A stretch of 64,000 nt of DNA. Origin: Candidatus Omnitrophota bacterium. GTDB taxonomy: Bacteria > Omnitrophota > Gorgyraeia > Duberdicusellales > 4484-171. Every line of letters starts with the position of its first letter. Within the stretch, counting starts at the first letter, position 1. The position numbers and the translations under genes are program-made. The stretch spans positions 381,855-445,854 of the forward strand of contig JBAZGN010000001.1 of NCBI GenBank assembly GCA_041652815.1, read 5' to 3'. The notes under the pieces were generated by a model. The model did no database searches. It was not told the DNA's origin and saw only the letters and a program-made list of their open reading frames with translations. Of this stretch, positions 5,676 through 63,335 are shown in pieces.

Positions 5676-5789
5676 AAAGCAATAAACATAGAAGCGGATA
5701 TCCGCGGATCTATACGCGGATAAACGCAAACGAGTTTGTGTGCGGAAATCCGCGTAAGTATCCGCGGCAATCCGCATCTATTCTTCCAT

Positions 5790-7475
5790 ATGAAACCAAA
5801 TTTTGTTACCGAAATTATTGATGAGCATAATAAAACCGGCCGTTTTAACGCGAGGGTGCATACGCGTTTTCCGCCCGAGCCAAACGGTTATTTGCATATT
5901 GGCCACGCCAAGGCGATTTATCTAAATTATTCTATAGCCAAGCAATACAACGGAAAATTTAATCTGCGTTTTGACGATACCAACCCTTGCAAAGAAGAAC
6001 AAGAATACGTTGATTCAATCATTGAGGATGTGAAATGGCTTGGCGCAGATTACCAAGGCCGCCTTTTCTACGCCTCGGATTATTTTGCGCAAATGTACGA
6101 ATACGCGGTAGCTTTGATTAAAAAAGGCAAAGCTTATGTCTGCGATTTAAATGCAGACCAAATCCGCACCTCGCGCGGCACTCTAACCGCGCCGGGAAAA
6201 GATAGCCCGTTTCGAAACCGCAGCGCAGAAGAAAACCTGGATTTATTCACGCGGATGCGTAAAGGTGAATTCCCTGATGGCTCACGGACTTTACGCGCAA
6301 AAATAGATATGGCGCATCCTAATTTTAATATGCGTGATCCAATAATGTACCGTATCCTACATTCCGCTCATCATCGTACCAAGGATAATTGGTGTATATA
6401 TCCCACGTATGACTGGGCGCATGGCTTGGAAGATTCCATAGAAAACATTACCCACTCGATATGCACGCTTGAATTTGAGAACCACCGGCCTTTATACGAT
6501 TGGTTTCTTGAGCAATTAGAAATATTTCATCCGCAGCAGATTGAGTTTGCCCGCTTAAATATTACCTATACGGTATTAAGCAAGCGAAAGCTTCTTGAAT
6601 TGGTTGAAGGTAATTTTGTCAGCGGCTGGGATGACCCGCGCATGCCAACTCTCGCAGGCCTTCGGCGCCGCGGTTACCCTAAAGAAGCACTGCATAATTT
6701 CTGCGAAGAGATAGGTGTCGCCAAATTTAACAGTACAATTGATGTAGGCGTGCTTGAGGAAGCGGTACGCGGCATCTTAAATAAAACCGCCGCGCGCGTA
6801 ATGGCAGTGCTTAGGCCGCTTAAAATTATCATCAAAAATTATCCTGAAGGTAAATTCGAAGAGCTTGAAGCGGTAAATAATCCGGAAGATGCTTCTATGG
6901 GTAGCCGGAAAATATTTTTCTCCCGCGAAATTTTCATTGAACAGGATGATTTTCGCGAAAATCCGCCCAAGGAATTTTTCCGTCTTTCCCCAGGTCGTGA
7001 AGTGCGGCTGCGTTATGCCTATTTTCTTAAATGCGAAGAAGTAATTAAGGATAAAGACGGCAATATTACGCAATTAATTTGCAGTTATGACCCGCAAACC
7101 CGCGGCGGAAACGCACCAGATGGACGCAAGGTAAAAGCAACAATTCATTGGGTGTCTTGCCACGATAGTTTCAATGCGCAGGTTAACCTTTACGACAGGC
7201 TTTTTAGTAGTCCAGACCCGGAAAATGTCGCTACCGGAGGTGATTTTAAATCCAACATAAACCAGCGTTCGTTGGAAACTATTAATGATGCAAAGCTTGA
7301 ACCATCGCTTAAAAAAGCGCAACCTAACCAACGTTATCAATTTGAACGCCTTGGCTATTTTTGCCTTGATACACGAAGCTGCGGGCAAAATTTGGTTTTT
7401 AACCGTATCTCTACCTTACGGGACACTTGGGCGAAAATAAAGCAGAAGCTTGGGAAACAGCAGATTAGTCAATAG
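5790..7475 (+). CDS. glnS: glutaminyl-tRNA synthetase
   Basis: [25 protein letters not shown] and a VLSKRK-type KMSKS region are typical of GlnRS. Start chosen at MKPNF (5790), inside the longer ORF that opens at 5736. Confidence 0.9.
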
Positions 7476-7570
7476 TCCATAGTCGATAGCCCATAGTAAA
7501 AACTGTGGACTATGCCCCCCCTGCGGGGAGGCTTCGCTCTCGACAGTCGATAGTCGTTAGTATAAATAAA
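7473..7570 (+). repeat. ~95-bp repeat element that begins at the stop codon of the upstream gene; copy 1 follows glnS
   Basis: Shares aTAGtccatagtcga(t/c)ag ... cccctg(c/t)ggggaggcttcgctctc with 15014-15112, which lies after proA. In both copies the host gene's TAG stop codon is the first triplet of the element. Confidence 0.6.
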
Positions 7571-7620: not shown

Positions 7621-7749
7621 TGTTTAGGGTTTTATGTTTACCCCTCGCGCCTGTATATCGGGTAAATTTCTCGGCCTGCGGCCAGGAAATTTACCCGAAG
7701 TGCTTCGGGGTTAATTTTCCGCCCAAGGCGGAAAATTAAGGAGGTATAA
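7621..7749 (+). promoter_or_regulatory. structured 5' leader (three hairpins) ending in an AAGGAGG RBS, upstream of the small lipoprotein gene; copy L
   Basis: Inverted copy of 8354-8480. The hairpins are gggtaaatttc...gaaatttaccc, ccgaagtgcttcgg and ttttccgcccaaggcggaaaa. The last one abuts the RBS. Confidence 0.55.
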
Positions 7750-8353: not shown

Positions 8354-8480
8354 AAACCCTCCTTAATGAGCCCCGACTTACGTCGGGGCGAATTAACCCC
8401 GCAGCGCTTCGGTTAAATTTCCTGGTTGCAGGCACAGTCTCTTACCAGGAAATTTAACCGATATACAGGCGCAAGGGGTA
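8354..8480 (-). promoter_or_regulatory. structured 5' leader, copy R; inverted duplicate of 7621-7749
   Basis: Its reverse complement aligns with 7621-7749. Several differences are compensatory within the hairpin stems. Confidence 0.55.
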
Positions 8481-9089
8481 AATTACTATAAATTTTTTGG
8501 AATAAAGCACATTATTTTTCCAAGCTGAAGATACAGGAAAAATGTTGGCCTCATTTAATTAGACGTGGCATGCCTTTAAAAAGTCTACAATCTTGATTGG
8601 TTCAAGCAGGTAAAAGGGGTTAAAAATAAAGATTCCACGGCGTTTTACCGTGGAATCTTAAGAAGAAGAGGGGGCGATATTTTACCCTAAGCACTTAACT
8701 CAGGCATTCAGGACTTGATCGCCCCCTGGGGTTAGTTTAAAACAAAACCCCAAATGTTGGCCTGGATGCCGCATTGAGAAAGTTTAGCCTTAGGGCAATT
8801 AAGATATAGCACATCAGAAAATATTTTTCAAGGTGAAAGGGCAAGTTTATTCCCTTTACCATAATACCCTGCCTGCTCGCCCGCCGTAAGGCGGGCAGGG
8901 CGGGCGAGGCTGCGCCCGTGGATGAATGTGGAGTGGGATGTCGCCCCACGGGGCGTATTGCAAGGTACCACGGGAAGCCTTCGGCGTACCCGTGGGGCTC
9001 CAGTATAGCTGTTTTACATTGAAAACAAAAAAGCTTTTGATAATAAAAACATTAGAATTGGGAATTATTTATGGTAAAATAAAACTATA

Positions 9090-9338
9090 ATGCCAATTTC
9101 TTTAATTACCATCATATTGTTTGTACTTTTAGTTGCCCCAATAGTCATAATTCTTATATTGCAATCGGGCAATCCTTTCCGGGCGGAAAAAAATACCTCA
9201 AAAAGCCATCTAAAGAAAAACGAAACCTTGCCGGTAAATGTAAAAAACGGAAGATGGTGGTGCCCTTCCTGCGGAGATAGTAACCTCGAAGCTAAAGAAG
9301 ACTGCGGCAGCTGCGGGCAAAAGGTAAAAAAAGCCTAA
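9090..9338 (+). CDS. small membrane-anchored zinc-ribbon protein
   Basis: N-terminal TM helix. C-terminal CPSCGDS...CGSCGQK four-cysteine ribbon. Confidence 0.45.
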   Translation: MPISLITIILFVLLVAPIVIILILQSGNPFRAEKNTSKSHLKKNETLPVNVKNGRWWCPSCGDSNLEAKEDCGSCGQKVKKA

Positions 9339-9418
9339 AAATCCGCATTTTGTTGGTTAAATCAAACACAAATTCTCCTTGCCATAACCTTTTATAAATA
9401 TTACAATAATTTCCAACT

Positions 9419-9490
9419 TGCCCGGTAGTGTAATTGGCAACATGACAGACTCTGGATCTGTTGTTTCTGGTTCGAGTCCAGACCGGGCAG
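9419..9490 (+). tRNA. tRNA-Gln (anticodon CUG)
   Basis: Hand-folded cloverleaf. Acceptor tgcccgg/ccgggca with a U1:A72 pair and G73 discriminator. D stem gtgt/acat. Anticodon stem acaga/tctgt with loop ctCTGga. T arm tctgg-ttcgagt-ccaga. No encoded CCA. Confidence 0.8.
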
Positions 9491-9591
9491 TTCTGCTTCG
9501 CCCCTCACTAAGTGAAACGCTGGTAGGGCTTCGCAGAAACTATTCCTTAGAAGCTCTACTAGAGTTTAATATCTTAAGGAGCGAAGAAGAA

Positions 9592-9834
9592 ATGAATATA
9601 GTATATATCCTAACAAGTAAAAATTATCCGGAGCGATATTATATAGGTTTTACTCAAGATTTAGAACGCAGAATAAAAGATCATAACAGCGGTGATTCTC
9701 TATACACAAAACGCTATATGCCTTGGGAATTACAAACTTATATTACGTTTAAAAATAAACTCCAGGCAGAGGAATTTGAGAAATATCTTAAATCAGGTTC
9801 TGGATTTGCATTTTTAAAACGAAGATTTCTATAG
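9592..9834 (+). CDS. small GIY-YIG nuclease-domain protein (UPF0213-like)
   Basis: GIY-YIG motifs: VYILTS...YYIGFTQDLERRIKDHN. Start chosen at the internal Met of the longer ORF, because the upstream part of that ORF overlaps the tRNA. Flanked by inverted repeats gttctgcttcgcc / ggcgaagcagaac. Confidence 0.6.
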   Translation: MNIVYILTSKNYPERYYIGFTQDLERRIKDHNSGDSLYTKRYMPWELQTYITFKNKLQAEEFEKYLKSGSGFAFLKRRFL

Positions 9835-10163
9835 GCGAAGCAGAACTGTCCCTGCGAAGCCTGACCCGATGTTCTATTCTCTGAAGGGCGAAGCAGGACA
9901 GCCGTTCTTAATTTCAAATCAAAATTTTCGTACTTTTAGTGCTGATTTTTATGGAAGTAAATATGACCCAAACCGAAGTATTCGAATTTTTGAATAAAAA
10001 TCCCGTAATGTATTTAGCAACCTGTTGAATAATAGAAACTAATTTTTCACCCAAAGATCATATCAAGCTTTATTGATTAAATAAGAGAACAGAGAAGAAG
10101 TAAAATATTTTCTGTTATCTGTAAACTGTACTCTGTACTCTTTCCGAGCGAAGCGAGGAAAAC

Positions 10164-15016: not shown

Positions 15017-15112
15017 TCCATAGTCGACAGTCGATAGTTCACAGATTTAAAACTATGGATTATGGTCCCCTGTGGGGAGGCTTCGCTCTCTATGGACTGT
15101 GGACTAAATTAT
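15014..15112 (+). repeat. second copy of the stop-codon-containing ~95-bp repeat element; follows proA
   Basis: See 7473-7570. The proA TAG stop codon is the first triplet of the element. Confidence 0.6.
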
Positions 15113-39577: not shown

Positions 39578-41287
39578 ATGCCAGTAAAAGACGAAGTTCT
39601 TGTCGGAAAAGTTCTTATCGAGAAAGGTATAATTTCGCTTGAACAGCTTGAGATGGGCCTTGCAGAGCAGAAAAAGTGTGGGGGACTTATCTGCGCAATC
39701 TTGGTAAAGTTAGGTTTTGCTTCGCAGGAGAAAATTTTTGAAATATTAGCCGAACAATTAGGTGTAGCTTATATTGAATTAAAAGATAAACATATAGACC
39801 CCCTTGTTATAGGTAAAGTGCCTGCCAAATTCGCAAGCCACTATAAAATAATTCCCATAGAATTTGAAAATCAGACTATCACCATAGCCATGGCCAACCC
39901 TTTGGATATACGTACCATAGATGACATAAGGCTTTTGGTTGGGCTTGAAGTAAAAGCTGCGCTTTCCAGCGAGCCGGAAATAGAAGAAGCTATAAGGAAA
40001 TATTATGGTGTAGGCGCAGATACTTTGGAAAAAATTATTGCCGAGAAGCCGTCAGGTAGAATTATCGAGGAAAAAGCGGGAATAGAAGATGTTGCAGCTT
40101 TTGCACAAGATGCGTCCATAGTTAAATTTGTAAACCAGATACTTTCAGAAGCTGTTAAAGACAGAGCTACTGACATACATATCGAACCATTTCAGGATGA
40201 ATTACGCGTGCGTTTTAGAATTGACGGCGTGCTGTATAACATAAATATACCTGAAGCGATAAAACATTTTCATCACGCAATAGTTTCGCGTATCAAAGTT
40301 ATGGCGCAAATGAATATTGCCGAGCGCCGCCTGCCGCAGGATGGCCGTATCAAGATAAAAATCAAAGAGGAAGAGCTGGATTTACGTATATCAACAATAC
40401 CTACAACATTCGGCGAAGCAGTGCACATGAGGATATTGGGTTCAAAGCTCTTTCTTGATTTGGAAAGTCTGGGATTGCTCGATAAAGATTTAAAAATTAT
40501 GGAAGAAATGATAAAGAAGCCGCACGGCATAGTTTTTGTAACCGGTCCTACAGGAAGCGGAAAGTCTACGACTCTGTATGCAGCGTTATCGCACATAAAT
40601 TCTGAAAATGTAAAAATAATTACTATTGAAGACCCCGTAGAGTATCAATTAAAAGGAGTAAACCAAATCCAGATTTTTCCAAAAATAGGGCTTACCTTCG
40701 CAACCGCCCTTAGGCATATGTTGCGGCACGATCCTGATGCAATGATGGTAGGTGAAGTAAGAGATTATGAGACTGCGGAAATTGCAATACGCGCAGCTTT
40801 AACAGGCCATCTTGTATTTTCAACCCTGCATACAAATGATGCAGCAGGAGCAGTGACCAGGTTGTTAGATATGGGTATTGAGCCTTTCCTGGTTTCTTCA
40901 AGCCTTGAATGCCTGATTGCACAAAGACTGGTCAGGGTTATTTGTCCAAGCTGTAAATGTAAGCTTGATGAACATAAAAGAAAAGCGATAACCGGACAAA
41001 TAGGCAACAGCGAAATTATCAAAAAAGATGTGCAATTGTATGAAGGAAAAGGCTGCGCCGAGTGCAGGTTTACCGGTTATAAAGGCAGGACTGCTATTTA
41101 TGAAATATTAGTCATGACGGAATCAATCCGGGAGATGGTTTTAAAAAGAGGATCAGCTCAGGCAATAAAACAAAAAGCAATATCTTGCGGTATGCATACG
41201 CTTCGTCAGGATGGATTAAGAAAGGTTTGGCAGGGTGTTACTACCTTTGCTGAGGTTTTTAGGGTAACGCAGAAGGACGGCGCATAG
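39578..41287 (+). CDS. gspE: type II secretion / type IV pilus assembly ATPase GspE/PilB
   Basis: N-terminal GSPII_E_N-like domain. Walker A GPTGSGKST. Asp box, His box and a C-terminal tetracysteine motif (CPSCKC...CAEC). Confidence 0.9.
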   Translation: MPVKDEVLVGKVLIEKGIISLEQLEMGLAEQKKCGGLICAILVKLGFASQEKIFEILAEQLGVAYIELKDKHIDPLVIGKVPAKFASHYKIIPIEFENQTITIAMANPLDIRTIDDIRLLVGLEVKAALSSEPEIEEAIRKYYGVGADTLEKIIAEKPSGRIIEEKAGIEDVAAFAQDASIVKFVNQILSEAVKDRATDIHIEPFQDELRVRFRIDGVLYNINIPEAIKHFHHAIVSRIKVMAQMNIAERRLPQDGRIKIKIKEEELDLRISTIPTTFGEAVHMRILGSKLFLDLESLGLLDKDLKIMEEMIKKPHGIVFVTGPTGSGKSTTLYAALSHINSENVKIITIEDPVEYQLKGVNQIQIFPKIGLTFATALRHMLRHDPDAMMVGEVRDYETAEIAIRAALTGHLVFSTLHTNDAAGAVTRLLDMGIEPFLVSSSLECLIAQRLVRVICPSCKCKLDEHKRKAITGQIGNSEIIKKDVQLYEGKGCAECRFTGYKGRTAIYEILVMTESIREMVLKRGSAQAIKQKAISCGMHTLRQDGLRKVWQGVTTFAEVFRVTQKDGA

Positions 41288-63222: not shown

Positions 63223-63335
63223 ATTCAGAGGACAGATGACAGAGCACAGAGAACAGAGAAAAAGTAAAAAAATATTCTGTACTCTGTTTTCTGTAATCTG
63301 TACTCTGTAAACTAACCGAGCGAAGCGAGGTTAAC

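Follow-up and report, generated by a model that had tools for sequence, protein, structure and literature searches.

Introduction

Single-domain GIY-YIG nucleases of the Ssn type (cd10448), which are less than 100 residues long and widespread in Gram-negative phyla, are encoded by genes that are flanked on both sides by hairpin repeats of 20-50 nt in a fixed orientation. SsnA and three homologues bind these flanking NTS hairpins and cut single-stranded DNA (ssDNA) just upstream of them, ignoring double-stranded DNA and RNA; the authors of that work note the 'repeat-gene-repeat' layout, which is like that of an insertion sequence (IS), and suggest an IS-like origin (Chenal et al. 2025, Nat Commun, PMC11893778). 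By analogy, this is the closest known system to the locus described here, in which a gene for an 80-residue GIY-YIG protein and its flanking repeats lie directly 3' of the gene for a glutamine transfer RNA, tRNA-Gln(CUG), in a 64,000-nt stretch of contig JBAZGN010000001.1 from a Candidatus Omnitrophota bacterium. This whole stretch is referred to below as the window, and positions are numbered along it. We conclude that positions 9491 to about 9901 probably constitute a mobile, or formerly mobile, cassette of ~0.4 kb that inserts precisely at the 3' ends of tRNA and transfer-messenger RNA (tmRNA) genes. The best reading of its nuclease, judged by size, single domain and repeat-gene-repeat layout, is that it may resemble the hairpin-guided ssDNA nucleases of the Ssn type.

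The likeness to Ssn extends to several features. The window protein likewise consists of one GIY-YIG domain within the ~80-100 aa range and has no DNA-binding domain, and its gene is accompanied on both sides by oriented hairpins of 20-50 nt, in a left module at 9491-9590 and a right module at 9834-9901. Mini-hairpin cores of the GNA type occur in both systems, as GCGAAAGC in NTS and as GCGAAGC here. There are also differences. The cassette hairpins carry two 5-nt boxes (CTTCG or CGAAG) that oppose each other in an internal loop, and the window does not contain hundreds of dispersed copies of the cassette repeats. Whereas the cassettes are tied to tRNA and tmRNA 3' ends, with target duplications, tRNA is mentioned 0 times in the account of Ssn (PMC11893778).

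Structure of the cassette at tRNA-Gln

The tRNA-Gln(CUG) gene occupies positions 9419-9490 of the forward strand, on which all the features described in this section lie. ARAGORN places a tRNA-Gln(ctg) at 9418-9491, with one surplus base on each side, and the Rfam model RF00005 scores 60.7 bits at 9419-9490, in agreement with the 7-bp acceptor stem read from the sequence (9419-9425 paired with 9483-9489); position 9419 is thus U1, 9489 is A72 and 9490 is the discriminator G73, and no CCA is encoded. The two tools bear out the tRNA that had been proposed in an initial annotation, and the identity set that it named, U1:A72 with G73, appears to fit the sequence and its CUG anticodon. The glutaminyl-tRNA synthetase (GlnRS) that it placed upstream is found as a 579-aa open reading frame (ORF) at 5736-7475 with PF00749, PF03950 and PF20974 domains, and corresponds to a called 556-aa gene in locus L001 (L numbers denote individual loci used for comparison).

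The cassette itself has four parts, namely 13-nt terminal inverted repeats, a left hairpin module with two CTTCG boxes, the 80-aa gene and a right hairpin module with CGAAG boxes. The left terminal inverted repeat, TTCTGCTTCGCCC (9491-9503; TTCTG-CTTCG-CCC, here termed seg1), starts at the first base past the discriminator, and the right one, GGGCGAAGCAGGA (9886-9898), matches it at 12/13 positions; the two ends are set by the loss of similarity among relatives. Seg1 belongs to a leader stem-loop (9491-9590), in which it pairs with seg3a (GGAGCGAAGAAGA, 9578-9590), so that the Shine-Dalgarno site is buried, and which encloses seg2 (GGG-CTTCG-CAGAA, 9526-9538) and an inner hairpin. Beyond the gene, seg3b (9834-9851) is the reverse complement of seg1 together with the last 6 nt of the tRNA, giving an RNA helix of 18 bp with one G.U pair, and the right two-box hairpin, TGTCCCTG-CGAAG...CGAAG-CAGGACA (9847-9901), is an inverted copy of the left module. 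In this Omnitrophota type of cassette the gene sits inside the module, and the order reads tRNA G73, TTCTG-CTTCG-CCC ... GGG-CTTCG-CAGAA, leader, ORF, GG-CGAAG-CAGAAC, TGTCCCTG-CGAAG ... CGAAG-CAGGACA, GCC. There is a single ORF, and no recognised transposase (DDE, HUH, serine or tyrosine) or tyrosine or serine recombinase is present within the cassette.

The initial annotation had described inverted repeats on either side of the ORF, starting at 9491 and 9835. Their sequences, GTTCTGCTTCGCC and GGCGAAGCAGAAC, are indeed exact inverse complements over 13/13 positions, and lie at 9490-9502 and 9834-9846, each of the two starts having been given 1 nt too high. The left repeat extends into longer arms, of 18 nt and 94% match between 9485-9502 and 9834-9851, and of 22 nt and 86% match between 9486-9507 and 9882-9903. 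The secondary repeats that were also reported exist as 9522-9545 against 9843-9866 (24 nt, 75%) and, on comparison with related sequences, belong to a two-box hairpin module that is conserved.

A degenerate direct repeat brackets the whole. Its left copy is GGGCAG at 9485-9490 (tRNA positions 68-73), and its right copy is GGACAG at 9896-9901, within a GGACAG-CC (9896-9903) that represents a displaced or duplicated tRNA 3' end, degenerate from GGGCAG-CCA. Because ...GGGCAG-CCA is encoded at this point in a relative, L096, the cassette can be placed between G73 and CCA. The window copy is probably an old, vertically inherited insertion in which the gene has stayed intact; it looks old because the 6-nt flanking repeat is degenerate.

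The leader RNA (9492-9606) folds with -40.4 kcal/mol (z=-4.93; none of 200 shuffles equalled it), with AAGGAG paired to seg1, and the 429-nt unit as a whole folds as a panhandle (z=-4.7). The window contains 21 occurrences of GCGAAGC where 8.05 are expected, and 0/100 shuffles gave as many as 21. The repeats in the window are not a chance arrangement, as seen from the recurrence of the layout in independent loci, the enrichment of GCGAAGC and the panhandle fold.

The encoded nuclease

The gene runs from an ATG at 9592 to a TAG at 9834 on the forward strand and encodes an intact, single-domain protein of 80 aa with no DNA-binding extension. A Shine-Dalgarno sequence, AAGGAG (9576-9581), lies 10 nt before the ATG and is base-paired in the leader fold. 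The ~80-aa GIY-YIG ORF of the initial annotation is confirmed by the match to Pfam PF01541 (E=2.3e-15, residues 2-68), by this Shine-Dalgarno site and by homologues with the identical start methionine. The same annotation had dismissed a longer N-terminal extension, and justly so: close homologues are all 80 aa long and start at the same methionine, corresponding to the ATG at 9592, and the 138-aa reading from a TTG at 9418 is an artefact.

Homologues range from 77 to 90 aa, and residues Y5, Y17, G19, R27, H31 and E63 are invariant among 44 of them. The AlphaFold2 model, with a mean predicted local distance difference test score (pLDDT) of 95.4, has the order β-β-α-α-β-α-α and an Slx1-like fold. 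Foldseek matches it to SLX1, UPF0213, UvrC and I-TevI, and the nearest solved structures are SLX1/HIGLE (template-modelling (TM) score about 0.7) and the UPF0213 protein BH0048 (1zg2, E=1.2e-12). The motifs, catalytic residues and α/β fold are those of the GIY-YIG superfamily. An I-TevI- or Seg-type enzyme would be longer than 150 aa and have a DNA-binding domain (NUMOD, zinc finger or helix-turn-helix) beside the nuclease domain; such a second domain is absent from the 80-aa protein, both by Pfam and in the model. A profile search returned at least 7910 homologous clusters at 90% identity (E<=1e-5), of which the best 120 bear generic names only, and an NCBIfam scan matched no family; the cassette nucleases are marked by a C-terminal motif, E[KR]YLKSGSG-AF-K. 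We conclude that the protein is, by prediction from sequence and model, a minimal stand-alone GIY-YIG nuclease of the Slx1/UPF0213/Ssn type.

Distribution and association with tRNA and tmRNA genes

Relatives picked by the peptide pattern E[KR]YLKSGSG are encoded at no fewer than 579 loci on contigs representing one genome per species. These loci come from Omnitrophota, Planctomycetota, Verrucomicrobiota, Alpha- and Gammaproteobacteria, Acidobacteriota, Dependentiae, Elusimicrobia, Lentisphaerota, Armatimonadota and lineages of the candidate phyla radiation (CPR). Cultured carriers include Rhizobium tropici, Bradyrhizobium, Mesorhizobium, Sneathiella and Reyranella. Context was surveyed in 86 gene copies, taken from 80 homologous genome loci of over ten phyla, from the window and from two further assemblies of the same locus as the window. 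In 69/86 copies a tRNA or tmRNA gene lies upstream on the same strand within 404 nt (median 124 nt), and these upstream genes comprise at least 17 tRNA species as well as tmRNA; for VIT1, an unrelated neighbouring gene used as a control, tRNA linkage was found in 1/80.

Where a complete tRNA or tmRNA is missing directly upstream, most copies instead have a 3' fragment of one, ending in CCA, immediately before them. At L003, whose full-length homologue is the closest in the genome collection, the remnant of tRNA-Gln is GGGGCAG only, and another copy behind such a tRNA 3' fragment sits at the far end of a predicted provirus. We read these fragment-associated copies as cassettes that subsequent integrations at the same gene may have separated from their tRNA. 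A CT[TA]CG box begins 1-5 nt past the tRNA end in 60/71 related loci, and was present at that place in none of about 32 unrelated control tRNAs. A phage origin was considered and rejected on the basis of the single match among 2.9 million viral contigs, which proved to be a chromosomal locus at a prophage end. As far as sequence comparison can tell, the cassette family is tied specifically to tRNA and tmRNA 3' ends, which goes beyond what the initial annotation had in view.

Conserved module architecture

The modules share an architecture, the conservation of which was judged by direct permutation tests. In the spacer that follows the tRNA, seg1 has the form x-CTTCG-y and can pair with seg2, y'-CTTCG-x', the two boxes being opposed in an internal loop, and seg3, y'-CGAAG-x', repeats seg1 as its exact reverse complement. 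Immediately 5' of the start codon there is a second spacer hairpin, z-CGAAG...CGAAG-z', in which the Shine-Dalgarno sequence is often located. The sequences x, y and z vary between loci but covary. The boxes number 149 and 189, compared with about 18 and 20 in shuffled sequences (an 8-10x excess), in the order sense...sense, antisense...antisense. The reverse complement of seg1 (seg3) is found downstream in 28/60 loci, against 4.9 in permutations, and the hairpin arms are complementary in 35/54 and 37/53 loci, against 15 and 12. The helices extend into the end of the tRNA, with TGG, which pairs with CCA, after seg2 in 24/47 loci and TG after seg3 in 39/46, and the predicted two-stem folds agree across phyla.

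Rfam scans of the window, 18 loci and L013, at gathering and at permissive thresholds, gave no family for the module. They yielded tRNA, tmRNA, one ALIL pseudoknot (an IS-associated frameshift element, in L042) and chance matches that were mostly to microRNA precursors; a known ribozyme or RNA motif is excluded by these scans as the identity of the module.

Evidence for mobility

Evidence for insertion comes from the flanks of several copies. Copies at 63-76% identity to the window protein are found at tRNA-Tyr, tRNA-Met and tRNA-Ser, and in each case 13-14 nt of the tRNA 3' end are repeated, exactly and in direct orientation, on the two sides of the unit. Downstream of the right-hand repeat comes the displaced CCA at tRNA-Tyr and tRNA-Met, and a second, gene-less module at tRNA-Ser. 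Flanking repeats of 14-17 nt are likewise seen in Planctomycetia, in Pseudomonadota and at two Verrucomicrobiota loci. At seven loci in all (L175, L176, L177, L049, L014, L056 and L070), direct repeats of 13-17 nt bound a unit of 360-426 nt, and these repeats span the tRNA from the T-loop/T-stem boundary (about position 61) to position 73 or 76.

The point of insertion takes two forms. In L175, L176, L177 and L049 (the Omnitrophota type together with L049) the cassette follows the discriminator and the encoded CCA is lost; in L014, L070 and copies in several other phyla it was inserted after CCA. This difference implies different host demands on tRNA 3' processing.

The host tRNA also changes between closely related copies. 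Among protein pairs with at least 70% identity, 36/61 sit at different tRNA species, as in a pair at tRNA-Ile and tRNA-Arg with 82% identity. In genomes that have the gene at one tRNA, gene-less modules are found at the 3' ends of neighbouring tRNAs (L037, 3328-3596; L024, 2578-2785 and 3415-3700; L049, 2783-2849; L053, 2406-2654). Two gene copies are present in each of L012, L061 and L079, and one Doudnabacteria genome has both L041 and L073.

Non-coding modules are also seen in tandem between tRNA and gene, in L083 (3790-4000, with four left hairpins) and in the spacers of L075, L034, L015 and L053. Such stacks resemble the outcome of several successive insertions at a single tRNA end.

Close relatives and the empty site

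Omnitrophota copies that are 81-89% identical to the window protein occupy at least five genomic contexts. These are tRNA-Gln(CUG) beside VIT1, as in the window; tRNA-Gln(CUG) after GltX, with an HNH gene downstream; tRNA-Gln(CUG) after a STAS gene; tRNA-Gln(CUG) after a LysM amidase gene; tRNA-Gln(UUG) between spoVG and glmU; and a site without a tRNA, upstream of tRNA-Leu.

The most informative relative is L096, which has the same upstream 82-aa gene (79% aa identity), promoter region and tRNA-Gln(CUG), and lacks the cassette. Its similarity to the window ends exactly past G73, after which L096 reads CCA; an empty tRNA-Gln 3' end would have the form ...GGTTCGAGTCCAGACCGGGCAG-CCA-flank. At the right end, relatives with other downstream genes match the window up to ...CGAAGCAGGACAGC(C), a few nucleotides past the right repeat. 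The right flanking repeat varies, from CAGCCA in L003 and L088 to an exact GGGCAG(C) in L085 and a 13-nt exact repeat followed by CCA in L175 and L176. The comparison of the tRNA-Gln neighbourhood that the initial annotation had called for thus finds a cassette that is not fixed at one position, and an empty tRNA-Gln in L096. Its suggestion of a small mobile or homing-type element with a tRNA gene as target is borne out, at the level of sequence comparison, by the changing host tRNA, by empty L096 and by the flanking duplications.

Two further comparisons served less well. The right flank of L171 equals the native tRNA-Gln flank of L096 at 23/23 positions; because the loci are not orthologues and L096 contains this flank more than once, they do not form a clean filled/empty pair and are taken as support only. 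VIT1 was rejected as a synteny anchor, since tRNA-Gln synteny is hardly kept even at 85-90% identity among these metagenome contigs, L096 alone being informative.

L096 carries other features in the same neighbourhood. At 548-1725 there is a different, 1.15-kb insertion at the same tRNA-Gln, with two small ORFs and no integrase, bounded by a direct repeat of roughly 32 nt that comprises the tRNA 3' end, CCA and flank. Directly upstream of VIT1, at 2158-2490, is a UPF0213-type GIY-YIG ORF of a different subfamily. In L088/L089 (2172-3060) the cassette is followed directly by a gene-less module of another subfamily and then by an HNH endonuclease gene.

Proposed mechanism and alternative explanations

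In the mechanism that we propose, the GIY-YIG gene would have no promoter of its own and would be read by transcription continuing from the tRNA promoter. Translation would be kept low by a leader helix that holds the ribosome-binding site and may also pair with the terminal bases of the tRNA. The two-box hairpins would be read as ssDNA by the nuclease, which would cut beside them, by analogy with Ssn and NTS. A target tRNA gene would then be cut in a staggered way, one strand near the T-loop/T-stem boundary and the other after position 73 or 76, and host repair or ligation would complete an insertion with a 13-17-nt duplication; this last is the weakest step of the scheme.

Beyond this, the cassettes could represent an unrecognised class of minimal autonomous mobile element, in which insertion is driven by an 80-aa hairpin-guided GIY-YIG nuclease in place of a transposase or integrase, and is directed specifically to the 3' ends of tRNA and tmRNA genes of any kind. 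The T-arm and acceptor, or CCA, would be recognised through pairing with the element-internal TGG, the 13-17-nt duplication would run from T-stem to discriminator, and the gene-less derivatives would belong to the same class. We offer this wider proposal tentatively, as one that falls somewhat short of an even chance. If it is true, the hairpin and box code would be a compact system, evolved in nature, that targets ssDNA under the guidance of DNA.

A number of observations weigh against mobility of this kind. GIY-YIG enzymes hydrolyse DNA and are not known to carry out strand transfer, so that integration would need other factors. Most loci from other phyla have no detected flanking repeat; the 64-kb window holds one cassette copy only, and its flanking repeat extends over just GGGCAG/GGACAG. 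All of the distinct tRNA-adjacent copies at 81-89% identity (7/7) are at tRNA-Gln, and part of the pattern could reflect vertical descent with rearrangement. The SRM consensus published for the Ssn repeats, HGTCWYN(0-2)YYVSBRHN(0-5)WNVSBRGN(0-2)RNCYNB, is not enriched, with 3 occurrences in 514 kb of loci against 0-6 in shuffled sequence and none at modules. Flanking repeats from T-loop to 3' end are also what a tyrosine integrase leaves at tRNA genes. Finally, the sense strand folds better in 43/57 loci (p=5e-6), with more G.U pairs, a bias which points to a role of the module at the level of RNA that could be regulatory and unrelated to mobility.

Several of these points would suit a stationary, domesticated Ssn-like nuclease, with the leader as a cis-regulatory or processing element, co-transcription with the tRNA for strong expression, and positions that result from ancient events and rearrangement. 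The degenerate repeat and single copy in the window, the closest copies all at tRNA-Gln, the sense-strand bias and the sequestered Shine-Dalgarno site would fit with it, as would the neighbouring housekeeping genes, and domestication has been proposed for Ssn (PMC11893778). Such a gene would leave unaccounted for the duplications of 13-17 nt of tRNA 3' end that flank units at seven different tRNAs, the proteins of 82% identity at different tRNA species, the gene-less modules at other tRNAs of one genome, the empty tRNA-Gln of L096 and the tandem modules at single tRNAs in L083, L075 and L034, and we regard this explanation as unlikely, if the most serious of the alternatives. Less probable still is a miniature integrative island that is moved in trans by a tyrosine recombinase (Xer, or an integrase encoded elsewhere), with the repeats as attL and attR and the GIY-YIG gene as cargo or an addiction-type gene. 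tRNA and tmRNA genes are classic integrase targets; the direct repeats do run from the T-loop/T-stem boundary to the 3' end, a segment that classically forms the identity block where integrases act on tRNA genes, and the tRNA-Gln of L096 has received another insertion, the 1.15-kb one with its roughly 32-nt repeat. An island of this type would have to carry its specific tRNA 3' end, yet close homologues are found at many tRNAs; no integrase is encoded in or beside the cassette, either in the window or at those loci for which genes were called; on the left the boundary lies past position 73 or 76 and not within the T-loop; and the conserved terminal inverted repeats and box hairpins would be left unexplained.

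The module might instead be mainly an RNA element, such as a signal for tRNA 3'-trailer processing or termination, a new ribozyme or a riboregulator, with a protein that acts on RNA or tRNA. The start of the module coincides exactly with the mature tRNA 3' end, it pairs with CCA, its sense strand is the more stable and richer in G.U, CUUCG pairs with CGGGG through G.U in L013, and a fusion of GIY-YIG to a tRNA methyltransferase has been noted (PMC1564403). We consider this improbable, and somewhat more so than the two preceding explanations: Rfam gives no match, even at permissive thresholds, hairpins of the same type in both orientations suit recognition of DNA on either strand, Ssn nucleases neither bind nor cut RNA (PMC11893778), and both the flanking DNA duplications and the changing host tRNA would go unexplained. 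That the inverted repeats match by chance, or form an ordinary terminator beside an unrelated small gene, is suggested by nothing more than the short length of each repeat. This reading has next to no probability, being refuted by the recurrence of the layout in independent loci and by the permutation and shuffle statistics: the match is 13/13 and extends to 18 and 22 nt, the boxes, seg3 and hairpin arms all exceed expectation, and no terminator-like site was found. Insertion of a small, GIY-YIG-encoding cassette at tRNA and tmRNA 3' ends is the explanation that we prefer.

Comparison with other mobile elements and nucleases

The cassette shares several traits with IS200/IS605 elements and REP/RAYT systems. 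All are small single-gene elements accompanied by gene-less hairpin derivatives, with imperfect subterminal hairpins that are read, or in the cassette are proposed to be read, as ssDNA, and in which the flanking target pairs with bases internal to the element; the CCA-TGG pairing of the cassette resembles such guide-target pairing. Unlike the cassette, those systems use HUH/Y1 transposases and covalent intermediates and make no target duplication, whereas the cassette has a hydrolytic GIY-YIG enzyme, terminal inverted repeats, duplications of 13-17 nt in several copies and a tRNA 3'-end target.

Insertion at tRNA or tmRNA 3' ends with a duplicated tRNA 3' segment is common to the cassettes and to casposons, integrase islands and prophages, and the casposon duplication is about 14-15 bp. 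Those elements, in contrast, are 5-100 kb long and have genes for Cas1 or for a tyrosine or serine recombinase, whereas the cassette is about 0.4 kb long and encodes an 80-aa nuclease only.

Homing GIY-YIG enzymes such as I-TevI and SegB of phage T4 are likewise selfish nuclease genes that spread by cutting their target, as is proposed for the cassette, and SegB of T4 lies in the phage tRNA cluster (PMC2330249). They exceed 200 aa, have separate DNA-binding domains and are found mostly in phages and introns, whereas the cassette nuclease is a bare catalytic domain with its own hairpin modules and is almost absent from viral contigs. The best matches in sequence and fold are to Slx1 and UPF0213 (YazA, BH0048), which share the catalytic residues and, like the cassette nuclease, are without the C-terminal Asn region of UvrC-type enzymes. 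The cassette family differs from these in its E[KR]YLKSGSG-AF-K motif and its tRNA-linked setting, and an Slx4-like partner is not evident.

Other features of the window

A promoter-like site on the forward strand, TTGCCA-17-TACAAT (9379-9407), lies just 5' of tRNA-Gln, and its hexamers are also present in L096. In a scan for such sites it was the sole one in the interval from tRNA to cassette end (9379-9910), and neither a promoter-like nor a terminator-like site was found between the tRNA and the GIY-YIG ORF; co-transcription of the two is therefore inferred. The other promoter-like site of the scan (9133-9160) is further upstream, within an 82-aa ORF (9090-9338). An 82-aa zinc-ribbon-like ORF and VIT1 are the neighbours of the cassette.

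A possible second copy of the cassette in the window, an inverted repeat pair at 39714/40412, was rejected as a chance match inside a type II secretion/type IV pilus (T2SS/T4P) ATPase gene. Of the GCGAAGC sequences in the window, 6 are at the tRNA-Gln locus and 15 elsewhere, compared with the 8.05 expected for the whole window. Intergenic repeats at 7480-7560, 15050-15110, 10118-10160 and 63290-63335 consist of short octamers in tandem (CTGTNNAC/CCATAGTC-like), after which comes GAGCGAAGC; two of these repeats lie directly before start codons (10164 and about 63335), and two after stop codons beside a CCCC...GGGG hairpin. These repeats and the extra GCGAAGC copies may be further nuclease targets, or may belong to an unrelated repeat family.

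Two structured leaders that resemble each other, at 7640-7745 (forward strand) and 8360-8470 (reverse strand), are built of GGTAAATTTCC...GGAAATTTACC and hairpins of the CCCCGAAGCACTTCGGGG type. They precede two small lipoprotein-like ORFs on opposite strands and have no Rfam match. A G+C-rich island at 8860-9000 (57%, against ~38%) contains several strong hairpins (GCCCGCCGTAAGGCGGGC, CCACGGG...CCCGTGG), with no convincing ORF and no Rfam match.

Implications

No description of tRNA-linked GIY-YIG cassettes was found in the literature, in a search of openly accessible papers that included strings of module sequence; the family is undescribed as far as the literature could be searched. If our interpretation is correct, very many bacterial genomes bear parasites of 0.4 kb that are docked on their tRNA and tmRNA genes, which would explain thousands of annotations as 'GIY-YIG nuclease family protein' beside tRNAs, as well as the conserved 'CTTCG...CGAAG' sequences in tRNA 3' trailers. 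The Omnitrophota type has a bearing on tRNA maturation, in that the cassette severs the tRNA from its encoded CCA. Nucleases of the Ssn type would gain a biological setting besides Neisseria transformation, and an 80-residue nuclease that is guided by structure or base pairing to a defined natural target would be of interest for ssDNA tools. How a purely hydrolytic nuclease could sustain an IS-like element is a puzzle that can be put to the test.

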